Below are positions 9,837 to 58,103 of a stretch of 64,000 nt of DNA, piece by piece (within the stretch, counting starts at the first letter, position 1; the number at the start of each line of letters is the position of its first letter). This stretch comes from Candidatus Beckwithbacteria bacterium (GTDB lineage: Bacteria > Patescibacteriota > Microgenomatia > UBA1400 > CG1-02-47-37). Made by a program: the position numbers and the translations under genes. The stretch spans positions 251,532 through 315,531 of the forward strand of contig JAPLVF010000013.1 of the NCBI GenBank assembly GCA_026397255.1, read 5' to 3'. Under the pieces are notes generated by a model that searched no databases, was not told where the DNA came from, and worked only from the letters and a program-made list of their open reading frames with translations.

Positions 9837-11318
9837 ATGGACAATATCGGCCTGCAGCCACCATTCACTCCGCCACCAGAAAGACCCTCAGTTACTCTTC
9901 CACCGATTCCGCCGACGACGCCACCAGCACCACCAGCCACTCCACCAGTACAACCACTAGTGCAACCGGAACAACCAATAATCCAACCGCCCCATAATCA
10001 AAGGGCGAAAAAGGCCAAAAAAGTTTTGCCGAAGTTAGCAGTCGGCACACTCTTAGTCGCGCTTTTGGTGGGAGGATTAGTGTTAGGGAAAAACTTAATC
10101 GGGCAAAAAACTAGTGTAGAGAAATTGGCAACCGCCACGATTTGCGAATCGCCTTCGCCATATCCGTATACTCACCCACTTGACTGTGGGGCCCAATGTT
10201 GTAATAAGGACACACAATACTGTTGTACATTTGGTTGTAAAGATAAATCTGATGGCCCTTGCCCCGGTGAAAGCCCAACGACCGGACATTTTGCCAATTC
10301 AGAATGTTTCGAAACCGGCTGCCATGTCAGCGACGCTGACTGGAATAACGGAGTTAGTCCTCTTTGTGTTGTGATGCATTACTGGTGTCCTAATGGAGGA
10401 GCTTCGTGGGATCCAAATGTGTGTGGCGAAGCTGTAAGTGGTTACCAAATAATTGGTAATCGGGTTCAAGAAGCGGTTTTTTCTCAAGATTGTGGTACTG
10501 AACAAATCGATTTAATATGCCAGGGCGTTACGGATCATCCCCATAGAAATCGCCATAAGGGGCCTTGCGCTAGTCCGTCACCGAGCGAACAACCGGCATC
10601 ACCTAGTCCGAGCCCGTCGGTTTCATCACCCAGCCCGAGCCCGTCGTCGTCACTTACAACTATTCCAAATTGCACAAGCTTAATAACAACTGCTGATCTA
10701 AATAATTTGCAAGTAGGAACCGAATATTCTTTCCAATTAACAGCCGGAGGTACTGCTCCAATTACTAGCGTAGAAATGTCTGTTTATGGTAGTAGTTGTT
10801 CGAATAATCTTAAAACATATACTCCACAGACTGTTTCTGGTCCGGGGACTTACACGATTAAATGGACTCCTACCCAAGCAGGTTCGTTTACAGCTTACGG
10901 CAGGATCTGGAACGATGGTGTAGCTGAGTGTCGGGCTGACTGTGTTGATGGTCCACCACGATACTTATGCGCTAATGCCCAAGCGTGTAAATTAACAGGC
11001 ACTGTCACATCACCAACAACCATCAGTTGCGTGGAATTAACGAAAAATACGGCCAACCCTAAATTAAATGACGCTGTGCCTTTTGTTTGCAATGCAGGTT
11101 ATTCTTCACCTTCTCTCGTGGCTTTCTTTAGATACAGCACCAACGGCGGTTCAACTTACAGCGACCGTTTACCTACGAACGGCGTAGTAATAAATCCCGG
11201 CGCTTACCGAGCCTATTATACGATTACTATTGGCCAAATCGGCAACTGGGTTGTCCAATGCCGCATTTGTACCAGCGCGGCGGCGACTACCTGTACTGCT
11301 TGGGGGCAGGCAAATTAA
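9837..11318 (+). CDS. Membrane-anchored, Cys-rich extracytoplasmic protein with a Pro-rich N-terminal tail and (SP)n linker.
   Basis: N-terminus PPFTPPPERPSVTLPPIPPTTPPAPPATPP, then a TM helix, then about 40 Cys in the ectodomain and an internal ASPSPSEQPASPSPSPSVSSPSPSPSSS linker. Confidence 0.55.
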   Translation: MDNIGLQPPFTPPPERPSVTLPPIPPTTPPAPPATPPVQPLVQPEQPIIQPPHNQRAKKAKKVLPKLAVGTLLVALLVGGLVLGKNLIGQKTSVEKLATATICESPSPYPYTHPLDCGAQCCNKDTQYCCTFGCKDKSDGPCPGESPTTGHFANSECFETGCHVSDADWNNGVSPLCVVMHYWCPNGGASWDPNVCGEAVSGYQIIGNRVQEAVFSQDCGTEQIDLICQGVTDHPHRNRHKGPCASPSPSEQPASPSPSPSVSSPSPSPSSSLTTIPNCTSLITTADLNNLQVGTEYSFQLTAGGTAPITSVEMSVYGSSCSNNLKTYTPQTVSGPGTYTIKWTPTQAGSFTAYGRIWNDGVAECRADCVDGPPRYLCANAQACKLTGTVTSPTTISCVELTKNTANPKLNDAVPFVCNAGYSSPSLVAFFRYSTNGGSTYSDRLPTNGVVINPGAYRAYYTITIGQIGNWVVQCRICTSAAATTCTAWGQAN

Positions 11319-11320
11319 CT

Positions 11321-11929
11321 ATGAAAAAAGATAATAAATGGCTATTGTGGGGACTGATTGGCTTTACGGCTATCTTGCTGATAACGGCAATAATTTTATT
11401 CCTGCAGTTAAGGAAACCAACACAGCCCTTGCCGACGCCAAAACCAGTCGCCTCACCGCAAGTTCCGGAAATAAATGTAGCGGGTACGGCTGGTGTCTGT
11501 GAGCTAAGCTTTACGGTGACAGCGTCACCTTCACCCTCACCGAGTCCGGGGACGTCACCTTCACCCTCACCGAGTCCGGGGACGTCACCTTCACCCTCAC
11601 CGAGTCCGGGGACGTCACCACAACCAAACGTTTGTTTTGACACCTGCAGCACAGATGATGAATGTAAGGTGGCTAATTCTGAGTGGAGGTGTATGACTGT
11701 GTCCGGCGATAAGCGCTGTGTTAACCCTAACTGCACGGACGAGACCGACTGTAACTGCAATATCGCTTCCTCGCCTAACCCAACAATTATCGCCTACGCT
11801 TCACCAACTCTTCCACCCCAAACCAAGGGCGGCCAGCCGGTGTTACCGCAAGCGGGTATTTCCGGACCGGCAGTTTTAGGGGTTTCAGCCGGACTGTTGC
11901 TGATGCTGGCCGGGTTGTTGTTGTTTTAA
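11321..11929 (+). CDS. Small surface protein carrying an (SPSPSPSPGT)x3 tandem-repeat linker, a Cys-rich domain and a C-terminal LPQAG plus TM anchor. The start was moved to the ATG at 11321.
   Basis: MKKDNKWLLWGLIGFTAILLITAIILF (TM). Three identical 10-aa repeats encoded by three identical 30-nt units. The protein ends VLPQAGISGPAVLGVSAGLLLMLAGLLLF. Confidence 0.6.
   Translation: MKKDNKWLLWGLIGFTAILLITAIILFLQLRKPTQPLPTPKPVASPQVPEINVAGTAGVCELSFTVTASPSPSPSPGTSPSPSPSPGTSPSPSPSPGTSPQPNVCFDTCSTDDECKVANSEWRCMTVSGDKRCVNPNCTDETDCNCNIASSPNPTIIAYASPTLPPQTKGGQPVLPQAGISGPAVLGVSAGLLLMLAGLLLF
11524..11613 (+). repeat. Three perfect tandem copies of a 30-nt unit (gtcaccttcaccctcaccgagtccggggac), in-frame within the CDS.
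   Basis: Identical 30-mers at 11524-11553, 11554-11583 and 11584-11613. They encode S-P-S-P-S-P-S-P-G-T repeats. Confidence 0.9.
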
Positions 11930-11931
11930 AT

Positions 11932-13134
11932 TCAGCGCCAGGTAGGTAACCAGAACCAATATTTTAGTAAGTTTACAGGTAGTGGTATTGCGGTATTTAA
12001 GGGGTAGAAGAAAATAAAAGTTATAATCGTTATAAATATTATAAATTTTATAATTTTGGCTGGCAGAGCGTTAACCACTTGAGCTAAAATTAAACATAAA
12101 AAGGGCAGGGCGGGCAGATAGTGATGTAAAAACATAATCCGGGGAGAAAAAACGAAAGGAAAAAAGAGAAAGAAATAACAAATCAGAAGAAATAAATTGC
12201 TGCAGAAAATTAAGGAAATTAAACCGCCCCAGAAAACTAACGGGTTGCCAAGATTATAAATATTGGCGACAGAATTTTTAAAATACTCAACATAAAACCA
12301 AACCGGCCGGATTAGAAACGGCCACTGCCAGGCAGAAGACTGATAAGAGTGAGTGGCGGTAAGGTGGGTTTGATACCAAATAATTTGCTTGTGAAGATCA
12401 AAAAAACTGGTCAAGCTGCCGCCGCGGAGAAATAACTGAGAATAAGAGAGAAAATAAATAATCACTGTAATAAGTAATATGTAAACTGTAAACAAAAATT
12501 TTTTGGGAGATCTAATCAGAAAGAAAATTAGGTAAATCGGAAAAAGCAAGACGGCAGAATGTTTGGTGGCCACGGCCAAGCCGGTAAAAATAGCAGTAAG
12601 AAAGAGATTACGATAAGGAGACGCCTTCACATGCGTAAAGGAGTCTCCTTTAATAAATCGACAAAAGAAAGTGAGGGCAAAAATAATCCAGGTAGTCACA
12701 AAAATATCATTCATGGTAATCCGCGACATCGTCAACTGAAGATTGTCAAAAGCAAAAAAAGCGGCAGCCATTAAAGCGATTTTTTTATTTTTAAATAATG
12801 TCAGGGCGAAATAATAAAGGGCGGCAATGGAGATTGTCCCAAAAAGGGCACTGGGGAATCGCCAACCGAAACTGTTATCGCCGAAAATCTTAACTGAGTT
12901 CGCTTGAATTAATTTAGCTAAAGGCGGATGAAGCCAATCATAGGCGGTATTGGGTTCGGGCGCTTTGGCAAAGGGATTATAGGCATCAAGGTTCCCCTGA
13001 CTAATCGCCCGCACGGCCGGAACATGATAAACCTCGTCGAAAACATAGGCAGCCGGGACACCCAAGCGGAAAACCCGCAGGAAAAAACTAACAACGAGCA
13101 ACAACCATAACGCTCTCGTGTAAAATGGTTTCAT
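11932..13134 (-). CDS. GT-C fold membrane glycosyltransferase, GT39/PMT-ArnT-like (protein O-mannosyltransferase family). The start is tentatively placed at MKPFY.
   Basis: A loop-1 motif YVFDEVYHVPA (DE motif) is typical of PMT/GT39. There are more than 10 TM helices. An in-frame palindromic element sits at 12615-12650. The track ORF extends to 13248. Confidence 0.6.
   Translation of the reverse strand: MKPFYTRALWLLLVVSFFLRVFRLGVPAAYVFDEVYHVPAVRAISQGNLDAYNPFAKAPEPNTAYDWLHPPLAKLIQANSVKIFGDNSFGWRFPSALFGTISIAALYYFALTLFKNKKIALMAAAFFAFDNLQLTMSRITMNDIFVTTWIIFALTFFCRFIKGDSFTHVKASPYRNLFLTAIFTGLAVATKHSAVLLFPIYLIFFLIRSPKKFLFTVYILLITVIIYFLSYSQLFLRGGSLTSFFDLHKQIIWYQTHLTATHSYQSSAWQWPFLIRPVWFYVEYFKNSVANIYNLGNPLVFWGGLISLIFCSNLFLLICYFFLFFPFVFSPRIMFLHHYLPALPFLCLILAQVVNALPAKIIKFIIFITIITFIFFYPLNTAIPLPVNLLKYWFWLPTWR
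12615..12650. repeat. Palindromic hairpin element family A, copy 1 (AAGGAGACGCCTTCACATGCGTAAAGGAGTCTCCTT), located inside the GT39-like CDS.
   Basis: Read directly from the sequence. Translated in-frame on the minus strand as KGDSFTHVKASPY. Confidence 0.85.
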
Positions 13135-36663: not shown

Positions 36664-36677
36664 ATAAGGTTTGTTAT

Positions 36678-36748
36678 GGCCTGGTGTCCGAATAGCTAGG
36701 AAGCGGTCTGCAAAACCGCGTACGTGGGTGCAAATCCCGCCCAGGCCT
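36678..36748 (+). tRNA. tRNA-Cys (anticodon GCA), with CCA not encoded.
   Basis: Perfect 7-bp acceptor stem (GGCCTGG/CCAGGCC) and 5-bp anticodon stem (GCGGT/ACCGC). Loop CTGCAAA carries U33 and A37. Discriminator U73 is the Cys identity element. D-stem is 3 bp. T-arm is GTGGG-TGCAAAT-CCCGC with an atypical G at position 55 and one G-U pair. Confidence 0.6.
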
Positions 36749-36751
36749 CTT

Positions 36752-37933
36752 ATGCATATTGTTCAAATTTGTCAACGTTTCTATTATGGTCATGGACAAG
36801 AGATACATGTATATAATCTCTCTAATGAGTTAGCTCGACTGGGGCATAAAATTACTATTGTTACTTCTGATATCAATGCTTCTGATATTTTCAAAAAAGA
36901 CCTAAAATTACATGAAAATATTAATATCATGATTAGTAAAGCCATAAAGATAAAATATCCAACAAACCAACTATTGTTCCCAAATTTAGGAGAAGAGTTA
37001 CTACAAATGAATAATGTCGACATTATTCATGCTCATGGGGCAATGTGTTATTCGTCTCTTGTTGGTTTGACTATTGCTAAGACTAAGAAAATTCCTTTTG
37101 TCTTTACACCACACTTTCACCCATGGAGATTCTTTGAACAAAGGCCATACCGTTATATACGAGAGGCTTACGAAAAAACTTTTACTATTCCAATTATGCG
37201 GGAATCATCGGCAGTGATTGCAGTTTCTCCATTTGAAAAAAATTATTTAGTTGTGCGTCGTAAGCTTTCTCAGGAAAAAATTCATGTCGTTGCCAATGGA
37301 ATTAACGCTTTTTACTACCCCTCTGTTGTGTCGCGACGAGCGGTTCGCCAGCACCATGATATTCCAGAAAATAAACGATATCTTATCGCTTTTGGTACAA
37401 AAACTGATCCTCGAAAAGGAGTTGATCGTACACTCCAGGTTTTTGACCTAATCAATAAAAAAATTCCTGAAACACAACTTATAATCGTTGGCTGGAAGTA
37501 TAAAAAGAAGGCTGACCACATTGCAAATCTAATGGATGCCTTGCCTTGTAAAAAAAACGTCACAACCCTTGGTTATGTATCTGAGGATGAAAAAGTGGCA
37601 TTAATAAAAATGAGTGACGTCCTCATTTCCCCCACAAGCTATGAAGCTTTTGGAATTATTCTTGGAGAAGCGATGATGTTAAAAGTTCCAGTCGTAGTGA
37701 CCAGAGTTGGCGGGACACCCTTTATTGTTCGACATCGAAAAACTGGACTTACCGTCGGTAGATATAATAGCATTAATAAATTTGCACAATATACACTAGA
37801 ATTACTCCGAGATAACAAGCTACGTGAGCGTATGGGAGAAGAAGGAAAACGACTGGTTAAAAAATACTTTACGTGGAAAAAAATTACAAAGGATGTTAAT
37901 CGAGTATATTTAAGTGTACTTAAAAAGCAATAA
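36752..37933 (+). CDS. GT4-family (GT-B) glycosyltransferase. The start was moved to MHIV; the track ORF begins at 36671 and runs through the tRNA.
   Basis: C-terminal EAFGIILGEAMMLKVPVVVTRVGG (GT4 EX7E-type region). About 394 aa. Confidence 0.8.
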   Translation: MHIVQICQRFYYGHGQEIHVYNLSNELARLGHKITIVTSDINASDIFKKDLKLHENINIMISKAIKIKYPTNQLLFPNLGEELLQMNNVDIIHAHGAMCYSSLVGLTIAKTKKIPFVFTPHFHPWRFFEQRPYRYIREAYEKTFTIPIMRESSAVIAVSPFEKNYLVVRRKLSQEKIHVVANGINAFYYPSVVSRRAVRQHHDIPENKRYLIAFGTKTDPRKGVDRTLQVFDLINKKIPETQLIIVGWKYKKKADHIANLMDALPCKKNVTTLGYVSEDEKVALIKMSDVLISPTSYEAFGIILGEAMMLKVPVVVTRVGGTPFIVRHRKTGLTVGRYNSINKFAQYTLELLRDNKLRERMGEEGKRLVKKYFTWKKITKDVNRVYLSVLKKQ

Positions 37934-44951: not shown

Positions 44952-46196
44952 TTATTGAGATTTTATTATTTTGGTGGTGGAGATTTGGGGGTTGTGAGGC
45001 AGGACGATGACGACGCGGCCGCCGGAGCACTGCATAGTCCGGCGCTTGACGGCAAGGTTTGGAGTGCTACTAGAAACAGCCAAAATATCCGGCTTAATTT
45101 GATTAATTAAAGCGCTATGGTCTTCGTCAGAATCGAATTTTTCCGGAAGAGGAAAAACTTCATCGCTAAGCTTTAATTTTTGTAAATTTTTTATTCTTAC
45201 TTCTAATTTATTAATTGGCCGGCCGGGACCTTTAAGCTGGCGAACACGCTGGTCGGCTTCGACGCCAACTAATAAAATACCGCCTTGGTTTTTTGCGGCC
45301 AAAAGCAGTTTTTTATGCTCAATGTGTAAGATGTCGAAAACGCCGGTAACGAGAATTATTTTTGTAGCCTTATGATATTTTTTTAAAACAATCTCTCCGG
45401 TCGGCCGGGGATGAAAAAAAGCAAAGTGACGGCCGATTTTTTCGTGGGTAATTTTTCGCTTCATGTAAAAGTATTGAAATTTAAAAGCTAAAGATTCAAA
45501 AAAATCCATTAATAATCCAATAAGGTCCGACCTTTTTTCAGATTTGTCTTTTAAGGTCGGACCTTGAGGAAAGGAGGGGCCTTGGAAAAAGTTGGGTAAG
45601 TATTGTTTGTACCATGAGTTGGCTGTTAAAAAATTTTGATAGGCTTGGTCACGATTATACAGCGGTTTTAATTGGCAAAGCTCATGGGCGGTATATAGGT
45701 TTTGTTGGGCTAAGATTAAAGCGGATTCGTCCAAAAAAAGATTGAGACAAAAACGGTTGTTAATTTTGTGGCCGCGGCGAAGACGAAAAAATAATAAAGC
45801 AGTTAATAATAAACGAGCTAACCAAAGACGGTTTTTACTAGTAATAATTAATAAATCAATGTCGTCATTTTCAATGCTATTATTCATGCTTAAAGCGCCG
45901 GTAACACCAACTAATTTTATCCAGGGAATCAGGGAAAAAAGCCACTTAATTTGCTTAAGTTTCTGCCACTTTAATTGACTAAAGTGCCAACGTTTTTTTC
46001 TTAAACTCACCAGTTTTTGCCGACCGGGAAGATGAAAATAGGAAGAAGTTGTCCAATAAGGAGACACCTTCGCATTCGCAAAGGAGTCTCCTTTAATGGG
46101 GGAAAATTTAATGACTTCTTCTCTGGTTAAGGGATAGTCAAAAATATCGGCATAGGCAACGGGGGCTAAAATTCCCCGATTAGTTAGCCACGCCAT
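44952..46196 (-). CDS. Two-domain protein with an N-terminal nucleotidyltransferase-like region and a C-terminal cytidylyltransferase-like (RfaE-II/TagD-type HxGH-fold) domain. The start was moved to MAWLTN. It contains an in-frame palindromic element.
   Basis: C-terminal ILVTGVFDILHIEHKKLL...RPINKLEVR (nucleotidyl transfer motif). N-terminal DDIDLLIITSKNRLWLARLL. The element at 46058-46093 encodes KGDSFANAKVSPYW. Confidence 0.5.
   Translation of the reverse strand: MAWLTNRGILAPVAYADIFDYPLTREEVIKFSPIKGDSFANAKVSPYWTTSSYFHLPGRQKLVSLRKKRWHFSQLKWQKLKQIKWLFSLIPWIKLVGVTGALSMNNSIENDDIDLLIITSKNRLWLARLLLTALLFFRLRRGHKINNRFCLNLFLDESALILAQQNLYTAHELCQLKPLYNRDQAYQNFLTANSWYKQYLPNFFQGPSFPQGPTLKDKSEKRSDLIGLLMDFFESLAFKFQYFYMKRKITHEKIGRHFAFFHPRPTGEIVLKKYHKATKIILVTGVFDILHIEHKKLLLAAKNQGGILLVGVEADQRVRQLKGPGRPINKLEVRIKNLQKLKLSDEVFPLPEKFDSDEDHSALINQIKPDILAVSSSTPNLAVKRRTMQCSGGRVVIVLPHNPQISTTKIIKSQ
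46058..46093. repeat. Palindromic hairpin element family A, copy 2 (AAGGAGACACCTTCGCATTCGCAAAGGAGTCTCCTT), located inside the CDS 44952-46196.
   Basis: Read directly from the sequence. Identical to copy 3 including the 5' flank CCAAT. Translated in-frame as KGDSFANAKVSPYW. Confidence 0.85.
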
Positions 46197-51460: not shown

Positions 51461-53548
51461 ATGGATAAACAGTATCAGCCGAAAGAGTTTGAGGCAAAAA
51501 TTTACCAGATGTGGGAAAAGTCAGGCGCGTTTAAACCGACAGCGAAGGGTAAGCCGTACACGATTATTATGCCACCGCCGAATGCGAATGATCCGTTACA
51601 CGTAGGCCACGCAATGTTCGTGACAATTGAAGATATTTTTATCCGTTATCATCGGATGTTGGGTGAAGCAACTTTGTGGCTGCCGGGAACCGATCATGCC
51701 GGAATTGAAACTCAATATGTGTTTGAAAAGAAACTGAAAAAAGAAGGCAAAAGCCGCTTTGATTTTGACCGGGAAACTTTATACCAAATGATTTGGGATT
51801 ACGTGCAGAAAAATAAAACTACAGCAATTGATCAAATGAAAAAATTGGGGGCAAGCGCTGATTGGACCAAGCTAAAATTTACTTTAGATAAAGATATTGT
51901 CGATCAGGCATTGGACGCATTTATTAAATTATATAAAGACGGGTTGGTTTACAGAGGCTTGAGGCTCGTTAATTATTGTACCGGATGCGGAACAGGTTTT
52001 TCTAATTTAGAAATAAATCACATCGAGAGAACTGAACCACTTTATTACTTAAAATACGGCCCATTTACTTTGGCAACAACCAGACCGGAAACTAAATTTG
52101 GGGATACGGCGGTAGCAGTTAACCCAAAAGACAAGCGTTATCAAAAATGGATTGGTAAACAAATTGAGGTCGAGGGACTAGCGGGAAAATTTAAATTAAA
52201 AGTAATTAGTGATAATTATGTCGACATGAAGTTTGGCACAGGAGTAGTAAAAATTACGCCAGCCCATGATTTTAATGATTATGAGGTGTGGCAAAGACAT
52301 AAAAACGAAATTCCTCAACCAAAACAAGTAATCGACTTTAATGGCAAGCTAAATGCTTTAGCCGGCAAGTATCAAGGGATGAAAATTAATGAGGTTAGAA
52401 AAGTGATTGTTGAAGATCTAAAACAAAAAGGATTGATGGTAAAAATTGATGAAAATTATCAGCATGCTCTGGCTGTGTGTTACCGCTGCGGCCGAACAAT
52501 TGAACCATTGCCCATGGCCCAGTTTTTCATTAAAGTTAAGCCTTTAACCAAAAAAGTCTTGGCTTCCTTGAATAAGGGTGAGGTAAAAATTTATGGATCA
52601 GGCAGGGAAAAAATTCTTCGTCACTGGTTGGCTATTTTAGACGACTGGAATATCTCCCGACAAATTGTTTGGGGTATTACTATTCCAGTTTGGTACTGTA
52701 ATAAAAAGACTAATGATCCGGGTCAGTGTTTTGTGGTTAGTCAAACAAGGCCAAAAAAGTGTCCCAAGTGTGGGGCGACTGAATTCGAAGCGGAAACTGA
52801 CACTTTTGACACCTGGTTTTCCTCTTCTCAATGGCCCTTCCTTACACTTAGGGCAAGTCCTGACAAGAATGATTTTGAACGTTTCTATCCAACCAGCTTA
52901 ATGGAGACAGGTTATGATATTTTGCCGATTTGGGTAATGCGAATGTTAATGATGGGTTTGCATTTAACCGAAAAAGTGCCATTTAAACAAGTTTATTTAC
53001 ATGGCTTGGTAAGAGATGAAAAAGGACAAAAGATGAGTAAAAGTAAAGGGAATGCGATGAATCCGCTGGATGTGGTAGAAAAATACGGAGCCGATGCCTT
53101 AAGAATGGCTTTAGTGATGAGCACGACAGCCGGACAAGATAGCACCGTAGGTGAAGGAAAAATCCGGGGAATGCGAAATTTAACAAATAAGATCTGGAAT
53201 GCAACAAGATATGTGCTTAATATGCCTGAGCAAAAAGGACAATCGAAATACGAAAAAGAATTGAAAGAAAATTTAAAAATAAATATTAAAACTGTTACTG
53301 GTAGATTAAACAAGTTAAAACCTGGACAGGCCGCAGAGTGGATTTATGATTGGTTTTGGCATACTTATTGCGACCGTTATATTGAGTTGGCAAAAAAAGG
53401 GCTAATCGGGAAAAAATTAATGATTGAGGTTCTGCAAACAAATTTAAAACTCCTCCACCCGTTTGTGCCGTTTGTGACCGAAGCGGTTTGGCAACAATTG
53501 CCGGGAAATAAAGAAAAGTTGTTAATAAATTCAAGATGGCCAAAATAA
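51461..53548 (+). CDS. valS: Valyl-tRNA synthetase, short form (695 aa) lacking the C-terminal coiled-coil.
   Basis: PPPNANDPLHVGHA (HIGH), GTDHAGIETQ, editing-domain motif GTGVVKITPAHDFNDY, KMSKSKGN. Confidence 0.9.
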   Translation: MDKQYQPKEFEAKIYQMWEKSGAFKPTAKGKPYTIIMPPPNANDPLHVGHAMFVTIEDIFIRYHRMLGEATLWLPGTDHAGIETQYVFEKKLKKEGKSRFDFDRETLYQMIWDYVQKNKTTAIDQMKKLGASADWTKLKFTLDKDIVDQALDAFIKLYKDGLVYRGLRLVNYCTGCGTGFSNLEINHIERTEPLYYLKYGPFTLATTRPETKFGDTAVAVNPKDKRYQKWIGKQIEVEGLAGKFKLKVISDNYVDMKFGTGVVKITPAHDFNDYEVWQRHKNEIPQPKQVIDFNGKLNALAGKYQGMKINEVRKVIVEDLKQKGLMVKIDENYQHALAVCYRCGRTIEPLPMAQFFIKVKPLTKKVLASLNKGEVKIYGSGREKILRHWLAILDDWNISRQIVWGITIPVWYCNKKTNDPGQCFVVSQTRPKKCPKCGATEFEAETDTFDTWFSSSQWPFLTLRASPDKNDFERFYPTSLMETGYDILPIWVMRMLMMGLHLTEKVPFKQVYLHGLVRDEKGQKMSKSKGNAMNPLDVVEKYGADALRMALVMSTTAGQDSTVGEGKIRGMRNLTNKIWNATRYVLNMPEQKGQSKYEKELKENLKINIKTVTGRLNKLKPGQAAEWIYDWFWHTYCDRYIELAKKGLIGKKLMIEVLQTNLKLLHPFVPFVTEAVWQQLPGNKEKLLINSRWPK

Positions 53549-53556
53549 ATTCCAAT

Positions 53557-53600
53557 AAGGAGACACCTTCGCATTCGCAAAGGAGTCTCCTTTTAAAATA
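53557..53600 (+). terminator. Intrinsic terminator of valS, formed by copy 3 of the palindromic element (AAGGAGAC-A-CCTT...AAGG-A-GTCTCCTT) followed by TTTTAAAATATTT.
   Basis: The hairpin lies 9 nt after the valS stop and is followed by a T-run. Confidence 0.6.
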
Positions 53601-53642
53601 TTTAATAACTCTAGGCAAAAGTGTTTACCGGCCGGTAAAACC

Positions 53643-53662
53643 GATCCGCCAGCTGGCGGATC
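53643..53662. repeat. Perfect 20-nt palindrome GATCCGCCAGCTGGCGGATC, family B copy 2.
   Basis: Read directly from the sequence. Related copies at 44866-44885 (AATCCGCCAGCTGGCGGATT) and 59969-59984 (TCCGCCAGCTGGCGGA). Confidence 0.85.
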
Positions 53663-53668
53663 CCCTGT

Positions 53669-53988
53669 TGAAAAAAATAAAAATTGTTTATTTGTTGGTG
53701 GTTTTGTTAATTGTCGGAATGATCGGCAACTATCAATATTGGCAGGAGAAAAGAGCGTTCCAGGCCAGCCAAAAACAAAAAACTGTAATTCAGCAGGAAA
53801 TTGTTTCATTGGAAAAAGAGCTAGAAAAAAAACCGGAATACCGGGATGTTTTATTAAAATTAGCGCTATTAAATTACCAGATTTTGGAGACGGAAAAAGC
53901 AAAAGAGTACTGGAATCGGGCAAATTATCTAGATCCAAATAATTTAGAAGTGCAAAAAATCGGAGAGGTTATTTCTTCTCAGCTTTAG
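53669..53988 (+). CDS. Small membrane-anchored TPR-like protein, with a tentative TTG start. The track ORF from 53536 reads through the valS terminator and is probably 5'-overextended.
   Basis: TM IVYLLVVLLIVGMIG followed by helical repeats (...EYWNRANYLDPNNLEVQKIG). Confidence 0.3.
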
Positions 53989-54748: not shown

Positions 54749-54784
54749 TTAAGGTGACGCCTTCACATTCGTAAAGGAGTCACC
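54749..54784. repeat. Palindromic hairpin element family A, copy 4 (AAGGTGACGCCTTCACATTCGTAAAGGAGTCACCTT), intergenic. It is a likely terminator of the 1039-aa gene and lies upstream of rplY.
   Basis: Read directly from the sequence. Carries compensatory stem changes (GGTGAC/GTCACC versus GGAGAC/GTCTCC in copies 1-3). Confidence 0.8.
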
Positions 54785-54795
54785 TTTCCCATTTT

Positions 54796-57700
54796 TTACC
54801 TCTCGGTAAAGTCGACGGTAAAAATGCGGTCCAGGCTCATGTCGGATTTAAAAGTAACCACCTGGGGAGAAATTTGCCCGACCGGATTAATGCTCGTAAC
54901 TGACAAAAAGCTGGGGTAGTTAATGATGGCTTCCAGCTGATCATCAATAATCCCCGGCTGTTTCGGGATAACGAGAGCGAGCCGGCCCTGACGATTAGTT
55001 AAATTAAGCGGTTGGGTTAAACGATAAGTTATTTCCACTTTTAAAGAGTTTTTAACCGGCACGGTAACCGGAAAGCCAATAACAAATTTATCATTAATTG
55101 TTTCCTGGTCAACGTCTTTCAGATTTAATTTATTATCGCCCATTTTAACGGAGATGAGGACTGTCCCCTGAGGCAAGTATTCCCGCAAGTAGCTGCGGTA
55201 AATTCCACCAGGCCAAGCATCGGCCGGACTTTGATTTTGATAATCAATACTGGTGACGGCTAATATTTCTTTGGTTTTTAAAATAGTTAATTCCTGCCGG
55301 ATTAACCGTTTAAGAAAATAATTGGCCTTATTAATGCCTAAGTTTGCCTCGACTAAGTAGGAGTAGTCGCTGGTCACCGGCAATTTTGTGGCTAAATTTA
55401 GCTGAGGAGAATAAAGCGCGCCGGACCAATTTTCTTGCAGCAACAGCTTTTGGCTATCAGCATCGTGAAGATAAATTAATAATTGCTTTTGGGCCAAAGA
55501 GTTTTCAAATGCCTGGCTAAATTTAAGCAAATCTTGGGGAGAAGAATTTTTCATGCGAGTAAAAATTTCCCGGGCCAGGGCGCCTAAAAAGTCTTTTTTC
55601 TGAGTCGAGCCGGGGAAAAAATCAATTTCCGAGTGATATTCGGCCCGCTCAAAAAGATTGTCAGCAGTCACCTCTTCGTTGTAGTCAGGGAGGGTAATCG
55701 GACCAGTGGCCCGAAGCATTTCTTTGACTGCCGGAAGATTGACGGCAATAACGCCGTCAACGTTACGATTAGTGGTTTTACCTAAAAACCATTCGGCTCT
55801 TTGGGCAGAAATCGGAAAATCCGGATCCCAGTTAGAATCACGGAAATACCAGGTGTTTTGGCCTAAAAATTTAGCAATCGGCTGGGGCGGTTGAACATAC
55901 CCCTTTAACTGGCCATCGGCACTGTAAATATCTTCAACCACAAAGTCCAAAAGTTTGCCTTTTTCAAAAGTTAATAACCCGTAAGAGCCAATAAAGCCGC
56001 CGGTGGGCCGCAATTCGCTGGAGTTTTGAAAAAGCAAAAGATAAACTTTTTTAGAATCCTGGGCAATAAAACCCGGAATTAAAGGTAAAAGTGTCCGTCC
56101 CTGATTAATTTGATCGCGAATAGATGGCAGGCTGGTAGTTAAGGTTTGAAGTTTAAGCGTCAGCGGGGTTAATAAGGCTGAGGCTGATTCTCTGCCTGAC
56201 TGTAGCTCTGATTCAACAAAGGAAAATTCCGTATATGCCTGATCAAGATTGAGCTGAATGTCTTTAAGGGCTTGGCTGATGTTGCCATCCTGATGTTGAA
56301 AAATGATTTGCGCTAAAATCGTCCCGGCTTCGCCGGTTTTGGCTAAATGAACGGCCCCCTGACTAAGTTTGCTGCCGATAAACAATAGGCCGTCAAGGTT
56401 GGAGATTAATTTTGGGCCGCCAATAATTGAAGCCAGCAACCGGGAATGGCTTAGATAACTGCGGCTGGCGTCAAAGTTTTTTTGGGCCCGGAGACTTAAT
56501 TTAGTCATTTGGTTTACCTGACTGAAGTCTGGCAGGGCGGCAATTTGTTTCAAGCTGGAGGCGGCCCTCGTTCCGGAAATAAGCAAAAGAGTTGGCGGGG
56601 CAAAAAAATACAACACAAGGAGAACAATAAATAATAATAAATATTTATGGCGGCGAGAAAGATGAATCGGATGAGGCCGTAAAGACAATTTGATGGCTTT
56701 CTTAGGACGAAAAAAATTAAAGTTAATTTTGGGGAAAGTAATTTTAGGAAATTTAAAAGGCGGTTTGACAGGCTTAGTTTTAGTGGGGGGCGGAGCGGGC
56801 TTAATCCCCAACTCTTCGGGAGTATAAAGCGGCTCAGGGGAAATTGTTTCTTCGGAGGATTTTTGTTTTTCCGCCTGAAAGGCTTGACCGCCTTCCAACC
56901 ATTTAATGGTAGCTAAAATGCCTTGGTCAAAACTGACTTTAGGCGTCCAACCAAGTTCTTCCTGAGACTCCAAAATTTCCGGCGATAAATTGACGTCAGT
57001 TTCCTCTTGGTGGGCCGGAACAAATTCAATCGACAGGTTTTTATCGGGCAAGACTTGTTTTAATTTGTAAGTTAAATTTAAAACGGTGGTTTTTTGGGGA
57101 TTAATTAAAGTAAAAATTCTAGCCTGAGAGCTTTGAGAAAACATGGCCTTGGTCAGGCCGTAAACAATATCAGTGATGTAGGTCGGGTAAAGCGATTGAA
57201 GGCCCTGGCCAAAAATTTTTAATGGGCCGGCTTGCTTAACGGCCAAAAGCAGGCGGTTAATTTCACCGTCAGCAGTTAAGTTCATCCCCGGTCCGTAAGC
57301 AAAGCCCAGACGGACAATCCGAGCATCAAGCTGGTAACGATTAAGATATTCAAAAACAAGGGCCTCGGAAAACCGTTTGGCTTCGTGATGAGAATAAATT
57401 TCTTCATTGGTTTGGTTAGATCCAAAATAATGAGCTAAGTCGGTTGAAGAAAGAAAGCCGGAAAAAAGATCGGCATTAGAAACAAGTAAAAATTTACTGG
57501 ATTGTTTTTTAGCAATTTCCAGCAGCTCCCGCGTACCAAGCGAGTTAACTAAAAGAGTTTCCAGACTGAGGTCACGACCGGAGACATAGGCTTCAAACCC
57601 TGCCAAATGAAAAATATAATCCACTTTGGGAATGGTGGCAGAAAACGGTTTGTCTAAATCTTGTTCTAAAAAAATAAAGTTGGGTTGATGAAAAAGATTT

Positions 57701-57888
57701 TTAAGATTGGCCTTTTTACCACTAATCCAGTTATCAACAGCATAGACCCGACAGTTTTGGGCTAATAAAGTTTCGCAAAGTTGGGAACCGATAAAACCAG
57801 CGGCACCGGCAACTAAGGCCGAGGGAAGATGAGGAACTGACTGAAGTTTTTGTTTAGGCATAGGCAGGATAAAACTTCTTTCTTTCAT
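54796..57888 (-). CDS. Fusion protein. An N-terminal NAD-dependent sugar epimerase/dehydratase (extended SDR, about 330 aa) is joined through a Pro/Lys-rich linker and a single TM to a large (about 600 aa) extracytoplasmic domain of unknown function.
   Basis: LVAGAAGFIGSQLCETLL (Rossmann GxxGxxG). Linker PAPPPTKTKPVKPPFKFPKITFPKINF. TM YLLLFIVLLVLYFFAPPTLLLI. The start is set at ATG 57888; the track uses TTG at 57915. Confidence 0.65.
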   Translation of the reverse strand: MKERSFILPMPKQKLQSVPHLPSALVAGAAGFIGSQLCETLLAQNCRVYAVDNWISGKKANLKNLFHQPNFIFLEQDLDKPFSATIPKVDYIFHLAGFEAYVSGRDLSLETLLVNSLGTRELLEIAKKQSSKFLLVSNADLFSGFLSSTDLAHYFGSNQTNEEIYSHHEAKRFSEALVFEYLNRYQLDARIVRLGFAYGPGMNLTADGEINRLLLAVKQAGPLKIFGQGLQSLYPTYITDIVYGLTKAMFSQSSQARIFTLINPQKTTVLNLTYKLKQVLPDKNLSIEFVPAHQEETDVNLSPEILESQEELGWTPKVSFDQGILATIKWLEGGQAFQAEKQKSSEETISPEPLYTPEELGIKPAPPPTKTKPVKPPFKFPKITFPKINFNFFRPKKAIKLSLRPHPIHLSRRHKYLLLFIVLLVLYFFAPPTLLLISGTRAASSLKQIAALPDFSQVNQMTKLSLRAQKNFDASRSYLSHSRLLASIIGGPKLISNLDGLLFIGSKLSQGAVHLAKTGEAGTILAQIIFQHQDGNISQALKDIQLNLDQAYTEFSFVESELQSGRESASALLTPLTLKLQTLTTSLPSIRDQINQGRTLLPLIPGFIAQDSKKVYLLLFQNSSELRPTGGFIGSYGLLTFEKGKLLDFVVEDIYSADGQLKGYVQPPQPIAKFLGQNTWYFRDSNWDPDFPISAQRAEWFLGKTTNRNVDGVIAVNLPAVKEMLRATGPITLPDYNEEVTADNLFERAEYHSEIDFFPGSTQKKDFLGALAREIFTRMKNSSPQDLLKFSQAFENSLAQKQLLIYLHDADSQKLLLQENWSGALYSPQLNLATKLPVTSDYSYLVEANLGINKANYFLKRLIRQELTILKTKEILAVTSIDYQNQSPADAWPGGIYRSYLREYLPQGTVLISVKMGDNKLNLKDVDQETINDKFVIGFPVTVPVKNSLKVEITYRLTQPLNLTNRQGRLALVIPKQPGIIDDQLEAIINYPSFLSVTSINPVGQISPQVVTFKSDMSLDRIFTVDFTER

Positions 57889-58103
57889 GTTAGCGGATAA
57901 TTGCCCCAAGAACAAGGTGCTATTTGCGGAGAATCGTTTTAACCTATTCGGTTAGTACTTTTTTCTAGGACTGCTTTACAGGCTAAATTTGTTTTTAGTG
58001 ATTAGTCTGTTAACTAAATATTTTTTCGTTAGCACTCTTTTACATGAAATCTTCTTGAGTCAAAAAAGTTAGTTTTAAAAAACTAAACAAGGAGAAAAAG
58101 GGT

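Follow-up and report, generated by a model that had tools for sequence, protein, structure and literature searches.

How does a 36-nt hairpin come to lie in frame within a gene for a membrane glycosyltransferase? The question arises from a 64,000-nt stretch of a Candidatus Beckwithbacteria genome (GenBank assembly GCA_026397255.1, contig JAPLVF010000013.1, forward-strand positions 251,532 to 315,531), which we call the window in its entirety, and in which an earlier reading of the letters (the original prediction) placed a hairpin element at positions 12615-12650, in frame in a gene of the glycosyltransferase family 39 type (GT39/PMT). That observation is confirmed, with coordinates and sequence exact. 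The segment is very probably an in-frame insertion of a dispersed palindromic repeat, and the best reading of the repeat is as a nonautonomous element resembling repetitive extragenic palindromes (REPs) that tolerates translation, in analogy to the Rickettsia palindromic elements (RPEs). The repeat family is carried by Beckwithbacteria and related Patescibacteria.

The plus strand of the segment reads AAGGAGACGCCTTCACATGCGTAAAGGAGTCTCCTT, a 36-nt imperfect palindrome whose 16-nt arms are 88% complementary and lie 4 nt apart, with a layout of 8 bp, a pyrimidine-pyrimidine (Y·Y) mismatch, 7 bp and a 4-nt loop. The minus-strand hairpin is in frame with open reading frame (ORF) 11932-13134, running from the second base of codon K162 to the first base of codon Y174, and residues 162-174 read KGDSFTHVKASPY. 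As RNA, the minus strand is predicted to fold at -24.6 kcal/mol (z = -5.9) and the plus strand at -20.5 kcal/mol. The host ORF is a bona fide GT39/PMT enzyme, and the family label first given to it was upheld by Pfam scores for PMT, PMT_2 and PMT_4TMC (68.4, 63.5 and 78.6 bits, all above the cut-offs), by a match of the GT39 family profile to yeast Pmt1 (E = 8e-26), and by an AlphaFold model (predicted local distance difference test score, pLDDT, 77.9; predicted TM-score, pTM, 0.84) whose best Foldseek match is Pmt4 (9i5k_A; E = 2e-8; query-normalised TM-score 0.71). The acidic motif FDEVYH at residues 32-37 is the DE motif of the first extracytoplasmic loop, a feature of GT39 members, and the whole protein is 100% identical to one from an NCBI Candidatus Beckwithbacteria metagenome-assembled genome.

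Comparison with orthologs identifies the segment as an insertion. In an alignment of 26 orthologs, it is missing from P0004, P0007, P0008, P0009, P0011 and P0031 and present, in varied form, in P0003, P0005, P0006 and P0010; the filled P0003 and the empty P0004 share 85.8% identity. The empty site reads TTT TAT CGG / AAA AAT CTC in DNA (FYR / KNLFL), and relative to empty orthologs the net insert in the window gene is 45 nt (15 residues), longer than the 36-nt hairpin alone. In a neighbour-joining tree of 82 GT39 orthologs, sites with and without the insert intermingle within at least five clades, and the empty ones are uniform (FY[KR]K[NKS][WL]F). The net insert amounts to +45 nt in the window clade versus +30 nt in the clade of P0047 (empty allele TAT AAA AAA TAC TGG; filled allele TTT AAA GGA...CCT TAT TGG), and these differing sizes favour independent insertions in the same loop. 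One ortholog (P0044, locus L050) has lost 30 nt in frame and retains the 5' half of the element, which indicates that the elements also decay without breaking the frame, as their translation would lead one to expect.

The insert had been expected to sit between predicted transmembrane (TM) helices, where a loop location would be compatible with tolerance of an insertion, and the AlphaFold model bears this out, with helices at residues 142-162 and 173-190 joined by a coil at 163-172 in which pLDDT falls below 50 at 165-170. In an alignment with Pmt1, W91-R92 matches R138 of Pmt1, where TM2 ends on the lumenal side, D143 lies in loop EL2, and K191 follows TM5. Taken with the GT-C topology, in which the extracytoplasmic loops are TM1/2, TM3/4, TM5/6, TM7/8 and TM9/10 (PMC7801869), this homology would place the insert-bearing TM4-TM5 loop in the cytoplasm, on the opposite face from the catalytic side. 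The K/R-rich neighbouring loops (KNKK and RSPKK) are consistent with such a placement.

The hairpin recurs within the window. A pattern of the form AAGGAGAC-N(10-30)-GTCTCCTT has three matches versus 0.00 expected from 100 shuffles, and a stem-agnostic pattern (AAGGNGACNCCTTCNCNNNNGNAAAGGAGTCNCCTT) recovers four copies (starting at 12615, 46058, 53557 and 54751), all in one shared orientation, with 0 expected from shuffles. The window total is four near-identical 36-nt copies and one 44-nt variant (copy 5, minus-strand read CAAGGTCCGACCTT-N18-AAGGTCGGACCTTATTGG); a search of it for more copies or half-sites turned up nothing else but a 5' half-element at 45570-45583. Four positions set copy 1, the GT39 copy, apart from copies 2 and 3, namely the unpaired position 9, one loop base, and two that together make a compensatory A-T to G-C exchange, so the original prediction was right that this copy had diverged yet stayed paired. 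Copy 4 likewise has a compensated outer stem (TGAC/GTCA). Minus-strand RNA folds of the window copies range from -22 to -27 kcal/mol (z = -4.9 to -7.7). Where the minus strand of the four 36-nt copies has a U·G pair, their plus strand has a C·A mismatch, and its fold is for this reason 4-8 kcal/mol weaker; the 44-nt variant folds nearly equally on both strands. Copy 3 is either intergenic or situated in the first 20 codons of the plus-strand ORF 53536-53988, in an antisense frame (NKETPSHSQRSLL). The sole canonical start of this TPR-like ORF, the ATG at 53536, overlaps the valS stop codon and lies upstream of copy 3; copy 3 may be translated in the antisense frame as the N-terminal part of the product. 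The ortholog of this ORF at locus L031 has its ATG downstream of the element. The valS-TPR spacer is occupied by an element copy in both the window and L031.

As judged from the aligned sequences, the conserved feature at the GT39 site is the nucleotide hairpin, not the peptide. Six orthologous copies, retrieved by protein homology only and with no hairpin pattern used, share one hairpin architecture and the codon position at which it lies but have various outer stems (Table 1); 100% of their 90 cells pair, double-sided changes occur in 6 of 15 pairs, and the covariation score is 0.54 versus 0.15 in shuffles (0 of 500 reach 0.54) and at most 0.10 with slid partners. In P0006 the peptide is now KGPSLFNDKVGPC and the hairpin is fully re-paired, with a predicted fold still at -25.0 kcal/mol. 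Every segment-carrying ortholog examined also has the palindrome. The opposite case, a segment conserved in GT39 homologs that lack the palindrome, had been named in advance as the outcome that would refute the original prediction; it was seen in none of them, and the reading stands.

The wider family was sought by one pattern scan each of genome and metagenome collections, with a pattern that constrained neither the outer stem nor the loop and left one of the inner pairs open as well. These scans returned about 30 distinct members and a few unrelated GC-rich terminators. Among 30 members, 99.6% of cells pair, 55 cells carry double changes, and all five pairs left free by the search pattern covary, with 0 of 500 shuffles reaching the observed score. 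The Y·Y mismatch at position 9/28 is kept in 27 of 30, the loop sequence is free, and the consensus of the 3' flank is A (26/30), W, W, G (27/30), G (23/30), where W is A or T. Member contigs have 37-51% GC, and many are labelled Beckwithbacteria or Patescibacteria. Five contigs of GTDB genomes (L008, L009, L011, L019 and L021) carry the element though titled "uncultured Pseudomonadales" or "Gammaproteobacteria"; L008 encodes a Beckwithbacteria-like ValS, 71.8% identical to that of the window, and contigs so titled are probably misbinned or mislabelled. Viral contigs gave no pattern match, and a phage origin was rejected. The Rfam 15 covariance models gave no match at the gathering threshold and chance-level matches only at E <= 1, and no report of palindromic in-frame elements in Candidate Phyla Radiation (CPR)/Patescibacteria was found in the literature.

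Properties of the family suit it to life inside genes. Besides the 36-nt form there are 33- and 39-nt hairpins, the 33- and 36-nt subfamilies being multiples of three, and five of the six reading frames of the core are stop-free. Because the core combines such a length with five stop-free frames, a copy within a gene lengthens the protein by a few residues and does not destroy it. Many copies are found in long ORFs whose frame runs on uninterrupted through the element; five of the six possible frames are used, and most in-gene copies are sense-oriented (Table 1). All three GT39 insertion sites are cytoplasmic loops after TM helices. The valS gene of the window represents the empty allele of the ValS insertion site, and an intergenic copy follows directly on the groEL stop codon at L007/L047. 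The 36-nt core is made of an 8-bp outer stem, a conserved Y·Y mismatch, a 7-bp inner stem with a U·G wobble on one strand only and a 4-nt loop, and is followed by A-W-W-G-G. In the explanation we propose, copies persist where extra residues are tolerated, in GT39 the cytoplasmic TM4-TM5 loop. We infer that the insert is translated and that it is neutral or nearly so.

A composite subfamily was also observed (L007, L016, L021, L031, L039 and L047), whose members carry, 3' of the 36-nt hairpin, another imperfect hairpin (AAAGGAYTCRAGTGG...CCACYYGA) that contains an A·C mismatch; in UppS (L016 and L021) the entire composite of about 90 nt is in frame. A tRNA or T-arm reading suggested by the subfamily flank GGACTCGAGTCC was dropped, as ARAGORN and Rfam find no tRNA there and the flank is the second hairpin of the composite. 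In an alignment of homologs of the window gene 44952-46196 (alignment A4), other palindrome-coded peptide inserts (GSDPEGFKFPIGSDP, QGRSLTGDPAEGRVGT and QGPTLK...KRSDL) occur at several loops, which suggests that several hairpin-repeat families are present in these genomes.

Table 1. Element copies in the window, in-gene copies at other loci, outer stems at the GT39 site, and RAYT-like transposase genes (RAYT, REP-associated tyrosine transposase; PBP, penicillin-binding protein)
Feature	Position or locus	Strand or orientation	Remarks
GT39/PMT-family glycosyltransferase gene, 400 aa	11932..13134	(-)	host of copy 1
Net 45-nt insertion versus empty orthologs	12613..12657	(-)	encodes F160-Y174 = FIKGDSFTHVKASPY, TM4-TM5 loop
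Copy 1, 36-nt hairpin	12615..12650	(-)	minus-strand read AAGGAGACTCCTTTACGCATGTGAAGGCGTCTCCTT; in frame in GT39 gene
Copy 5, 44-nt variant	45522..45565	(-)	AAGGTCCGACCTT-N18-AAGGTCGGACCTT then ATTGG; in frame (QGPTLKDKSEKRSDL) in gene 44952-46196
5' half-element AAGGCCCCTCCTTT	45570-45583		near copy 5
Copy 2	46058..46093	(-)	in frame (KGDSFANAKVSPYW) in cytidylyltransferase-like gene 44952-46196; absent from homologs such as P0123
Copy 3	53557..53592	(-)	9 nt past valS stop codon
Copy 4	54751..54786	(-)	intergenic, between stop of ORF 54796-57915 and start of L25 gene (53969-54712)
In GT39, three loops, up to three copies per gene	several loci	mostly sense, one frame	
In ValS	L008, L034	antisense	
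In LeuS	L009	antisense	
In UppS	L016, L021	sense, another frame	
In PBP transpeptidase, two copies	L024	sense	
In O-antigen-ligase-like protein	L042	sense	
In cytidylyltransferase-like protein	window copies 2 and 5	sense	
Outer stem at GT39 site	window		AGAC/GTCT
Outer stem at GT39 site	P0010		AGAC/GTCT
Outer stem at GT39 site	P0003		TCCG/CGGA
Outer stem at GT39 site	P0005		ACGC/GCGT
Outer stem at GT39 site	P0047 and P0029		ATTC/GAAT
Outer stem at GT39 site	P0006		TCCG/CGGA, with re-paired inner stem CCTTGTT/GACAAGG
RAYT-like gene, 223 aa	L051:7866-8537	(+)	1.5 kb from the GT39 gene of L051
RAYT-like gene	L053:904-1575		
RAYT-like gene	L054:3638-4312		

Other accounts of the hairpin have to be weighed against insertion of a mobile repeat. 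The one that survives best, though we consider it unlikely, holds that the hairpin is not selfish but a host-selected cis-element acting as RNA or DNA, whether an mRNA stabiliser, an intergenic terminator, or a translational pause site after a TM helix. Selection on structure would explain why hairpins persist at orthologous sites and why stems covary perfectly while the peptide drifts, but the hairpin is dispensed with by close orthologs such as the 85.8% identical pair, its distribution is patchy, and partial deletions are tolerated. Also in favour of this account are the U·G wobble that improves the fold of the mRNA-sense strand in the four 36-nt copies, the mostly sense orientation of in-gene copies, the copies right after the groEL and valS stops, including the same valS-TPR spacer in two genomes, and the location of all three GT39 sites in cytoplasmic loops following TM helices. 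Against it, both orientations occur, with antisense frames in ValS and LeuS, a terminator scan calls no canonical intrinsic terminator at copies 3 and 4, and Rfam has no match.

We judge it quite improbable that the pairing is kept up by mutation alone, through quasi-palindrome template switching or gene conversion between copies, following an old insertion that is no longer mobile. Arm-to-arm correction of this kind should erase the Y·Y mismatch, kept in nearly all members, as well as the U·G wobble, and the uniform empty sites together with the clade-specific net insert sizes favour independent insertions. What speaks for such upkeep is that each genome has one dominant stem (AGAC in the window, TCCG on contig Ga0233431_1000023) and that orthologous sites are occupied in proteins only 57-76% identical. 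Finally, it is scarcely credible that GT39 merely has an ordinary variable loop here, specific to the lineage, whose palindrome is incidental or a by-product of the peptide. The TM4-TM5 loop does vary in length across orthologs (by 0 to about 20 extra residues). This account is nevertheless contradicted by the recurrence of these 36 nt in intergenic positions and in genes of no relation to GT39, by the survival of the palindrome through peptide change, and by the 100% pairing among orthologs, which is unexpected from peptide selection.

For the dispersed REP-like repeat, the favoured explanation, a route of spread can be proposed. The element would move as single-stranded hairpin DNA via an HUH/Y1 (RAYT-like) transposase, inserting 3' of a CCAAT-like pentanucleotide without target duplication. 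Dependence on an imperfect hairpin, combined with insertion beside a short specific sequence that is not duplicated, is the hallmark of single-strand transposition of the HUH/Y1 type, as known from the IS200/IS605 and RAYT families (PMC3733652). Empty alleles at two loci already hold the 3' tail (CCAGT at GT39 site 1 of L049 and ACACTT in the window valS), so that the AWWGG flank, which corresponds to CCWWT 5' of the element on the other strand, has the look of a target preference and appears to be target-derived at these two loci. A candidate enzyme is encoded close to the GT39 gene of L051 (Table 1); its product matches Pfam Y1_Tnp at 28.4 bits (cut-off 23) and contains the motifs HFH and YIHxNP. 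The family to which it belongs has 1378 homologs, and the matches that name a source are labelled Patescibacteria or Microgenomates.

Several findings weigh against this reading of the element and its mobility. The L051 protein has REP_Tyr_transpos as its best NCBIfam match, at 43.8 bits and under the cut-off of 80, and the RAYT-like genes of L051, L053 and L054 are flanked by palindromes other than AAGG...CCTT hairpins. The window contains no transposase: its ORF list looks housekeeping, and tblastn of the L051 protein against the window and the retrieved loci matches only the L051 gene itself. The canonical REP tags GTAG and CGTC are found at neither end in the 30-member alignment, the ends being N-AAGG and CCTT-AWWGG, and the sole instances of CGTC are internal to copies 1 and 4, where the mismatch base creates it. 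Filled and empty sites, when compared, reveal no target-site duplication; TATCG repeats at the GT39 site resemble one, a candidate rejected since other copies are without any. The different net insert sizes of the two clades at the same loop leave no single exact mobile unit, and hairpins that persist at orthologous sites could reflect host function instead. Movement of the element by a RAYT-type mechanism is therefore something we hold to be possible but doubtful. The flanks of the RAYT-like genes themselves contain locus-specific perfect palindromes, for example CCACTCCGGGAGTGG and TTCCGAACCCGGTTCGGAA, beside conserved ACTCTTGAC and CTTGA motifs. Over the whole window, the plus strand has a positive GC skew, with no sign change at rpmH-dnaA-dnaN (~60.4 kb), and without a switch at dnaA the copies cannot be assigned a leading- or lagging-strand orientation; either the replication origin is not at rpmH-dnaA-dnaN or the skew is uninformative in this genome.

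Among known systems, RPEs (Ogata et al. 2000) are the closest in behaviour within genes, being selfish palindromes that lie in frame in housekeeping genes (PMC10969869). The likeness extends to the dispersal of palindromes in frame in unrelated housekeeping genes and also between genes, to an added peptide that the fold and function of the protein accommodate, and to a host that is a small-genome, host-dependent bacterium. Insertions that preserve the frame are found here in GT39, ValS, LeuS, UppS, PBP and other genes. RPEs measure about 100-150 bp, in contrast to 33-45 nt here, and the present sequence family is presumably unrelated to the RPE-1 to RPE-10 families. RPE-1 ends in a CGTC tag (PMC3733652), which the element does not have, and the present host phylum is Patescibacteria, with a stem that covaries extensively around a fixed architecture.

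REPs are imperfect palindromes of 20-40 nt in many dispersed copies, a description that covers the 36-nt element; further shared traits are G·T pairs favouring one strand, conserved stem mismatches, several subfamilies per genome, some intragenic copies, and frequent positions just past stop codons (PMC3733652). RAYT-like Y1 transposase genes are also present in the same lineage as the element. A cognate RAYT gene bordered by the same REPs, together called a REPtron, is a further mark of the REP system. One end of a REP bears a conserved tetranucleotide, GTAG or CGTC (PMC3733652), whereas the element has the 3' flank A-W-W-G-G instead; other differences are that the RAYT-like genes examined stand beside palindromes distinct from it, that a large share of its copies are intragenic and in frame, and that its density is low, at about 1 per 13 kb in the window. 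With the palindrome-associated elements derived from IS200/IS605 (PATEs) and with MITEs (transposable elements of the miniature inverted-repeat kind), it shares a nonautonomous, hairpin-based form, the lack of target-site duplication and insertion seemingly by a short specific sequence, but it is one hairpin rather than two distinct ends, and no cognate insertion sequence was identified. Typical MITEs are far longer, at 50-500 bp, and are defined by terminal inverted repeats and a target-site duplication; the element lacks this combination, its sole inverted repeat being the hairpin stem. In size, tags and sequence, it belongs to neither the RPE nor the REP family as defined.

The surroundings yielded some further observations. 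Just before the GT39 gene in window coordinates and on the opposite strand, the adjacent ORFs 11258-11929 (+) and 9837-11318 (+) encode Pro/Ser/Thr-rich products in which SPSPSPSPGT is repeated in tandem and modules rich in cysteine occur; they are probably surface or secreted proteins. At 36678-36748 (+), Rfam identifies a tRNA-Cys (anticodon GCA; 52 bits) that ARAGORN missed; its T-loop is UGCAAAU versus the usual UUCGAAU, and it overlaps the 5' end of ORF 36671-37933. A UvrD-like helicase at L002:1-1412 (-), next to an empty-site GT39 ortholog, has Hint and Intein_splicing domains, which indicate, at the level of domain matches, that it contains an intein.

CPR/Patescibacteria genomes are about 1 Mb in size and are usually described as streamlined. 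A palindromic repeat, selfish or co-opted, in essential genes of such a lineage (ValS, LeuS, UppS, PBP and GT-C) means that the phenomenon initially reported from Rickettsia recurs in an unrelated lineage of reduced genomes. There are practical consequences: inserts of 12-15 residues inflate apparent protein divergence and can mislead alignment, orthology calls and structure prediction, and metagenome assemblies are likely to break at the elements. Because its covariation is unusually clean, the hairpin being retained while the peptide can vary, the system offers a natural test of how REP-like sequences are maintained, be it by transposase recognition, RNA function or templated repair. A broader proposal, and one more speculative still than RAYT-type movement, is that the element represents a coding-compatible REP-like class specific to CPR/Patescibacteria, with a length divisible by three, mostly stop-free frames, a fixed architecture and a free 4-bp "address" in the outer stem, mobilised by the 223-aa RAYT-like Y1 transposases and settling preferentially in cytoplasmic loops of membrane enzymes and in aminoacyl-tRNA synthetases. 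If this is true, the elements would keep diversifying loops in ultra-small genomes, and a number of copies may perhaps have been co-opted as mRNA structures.

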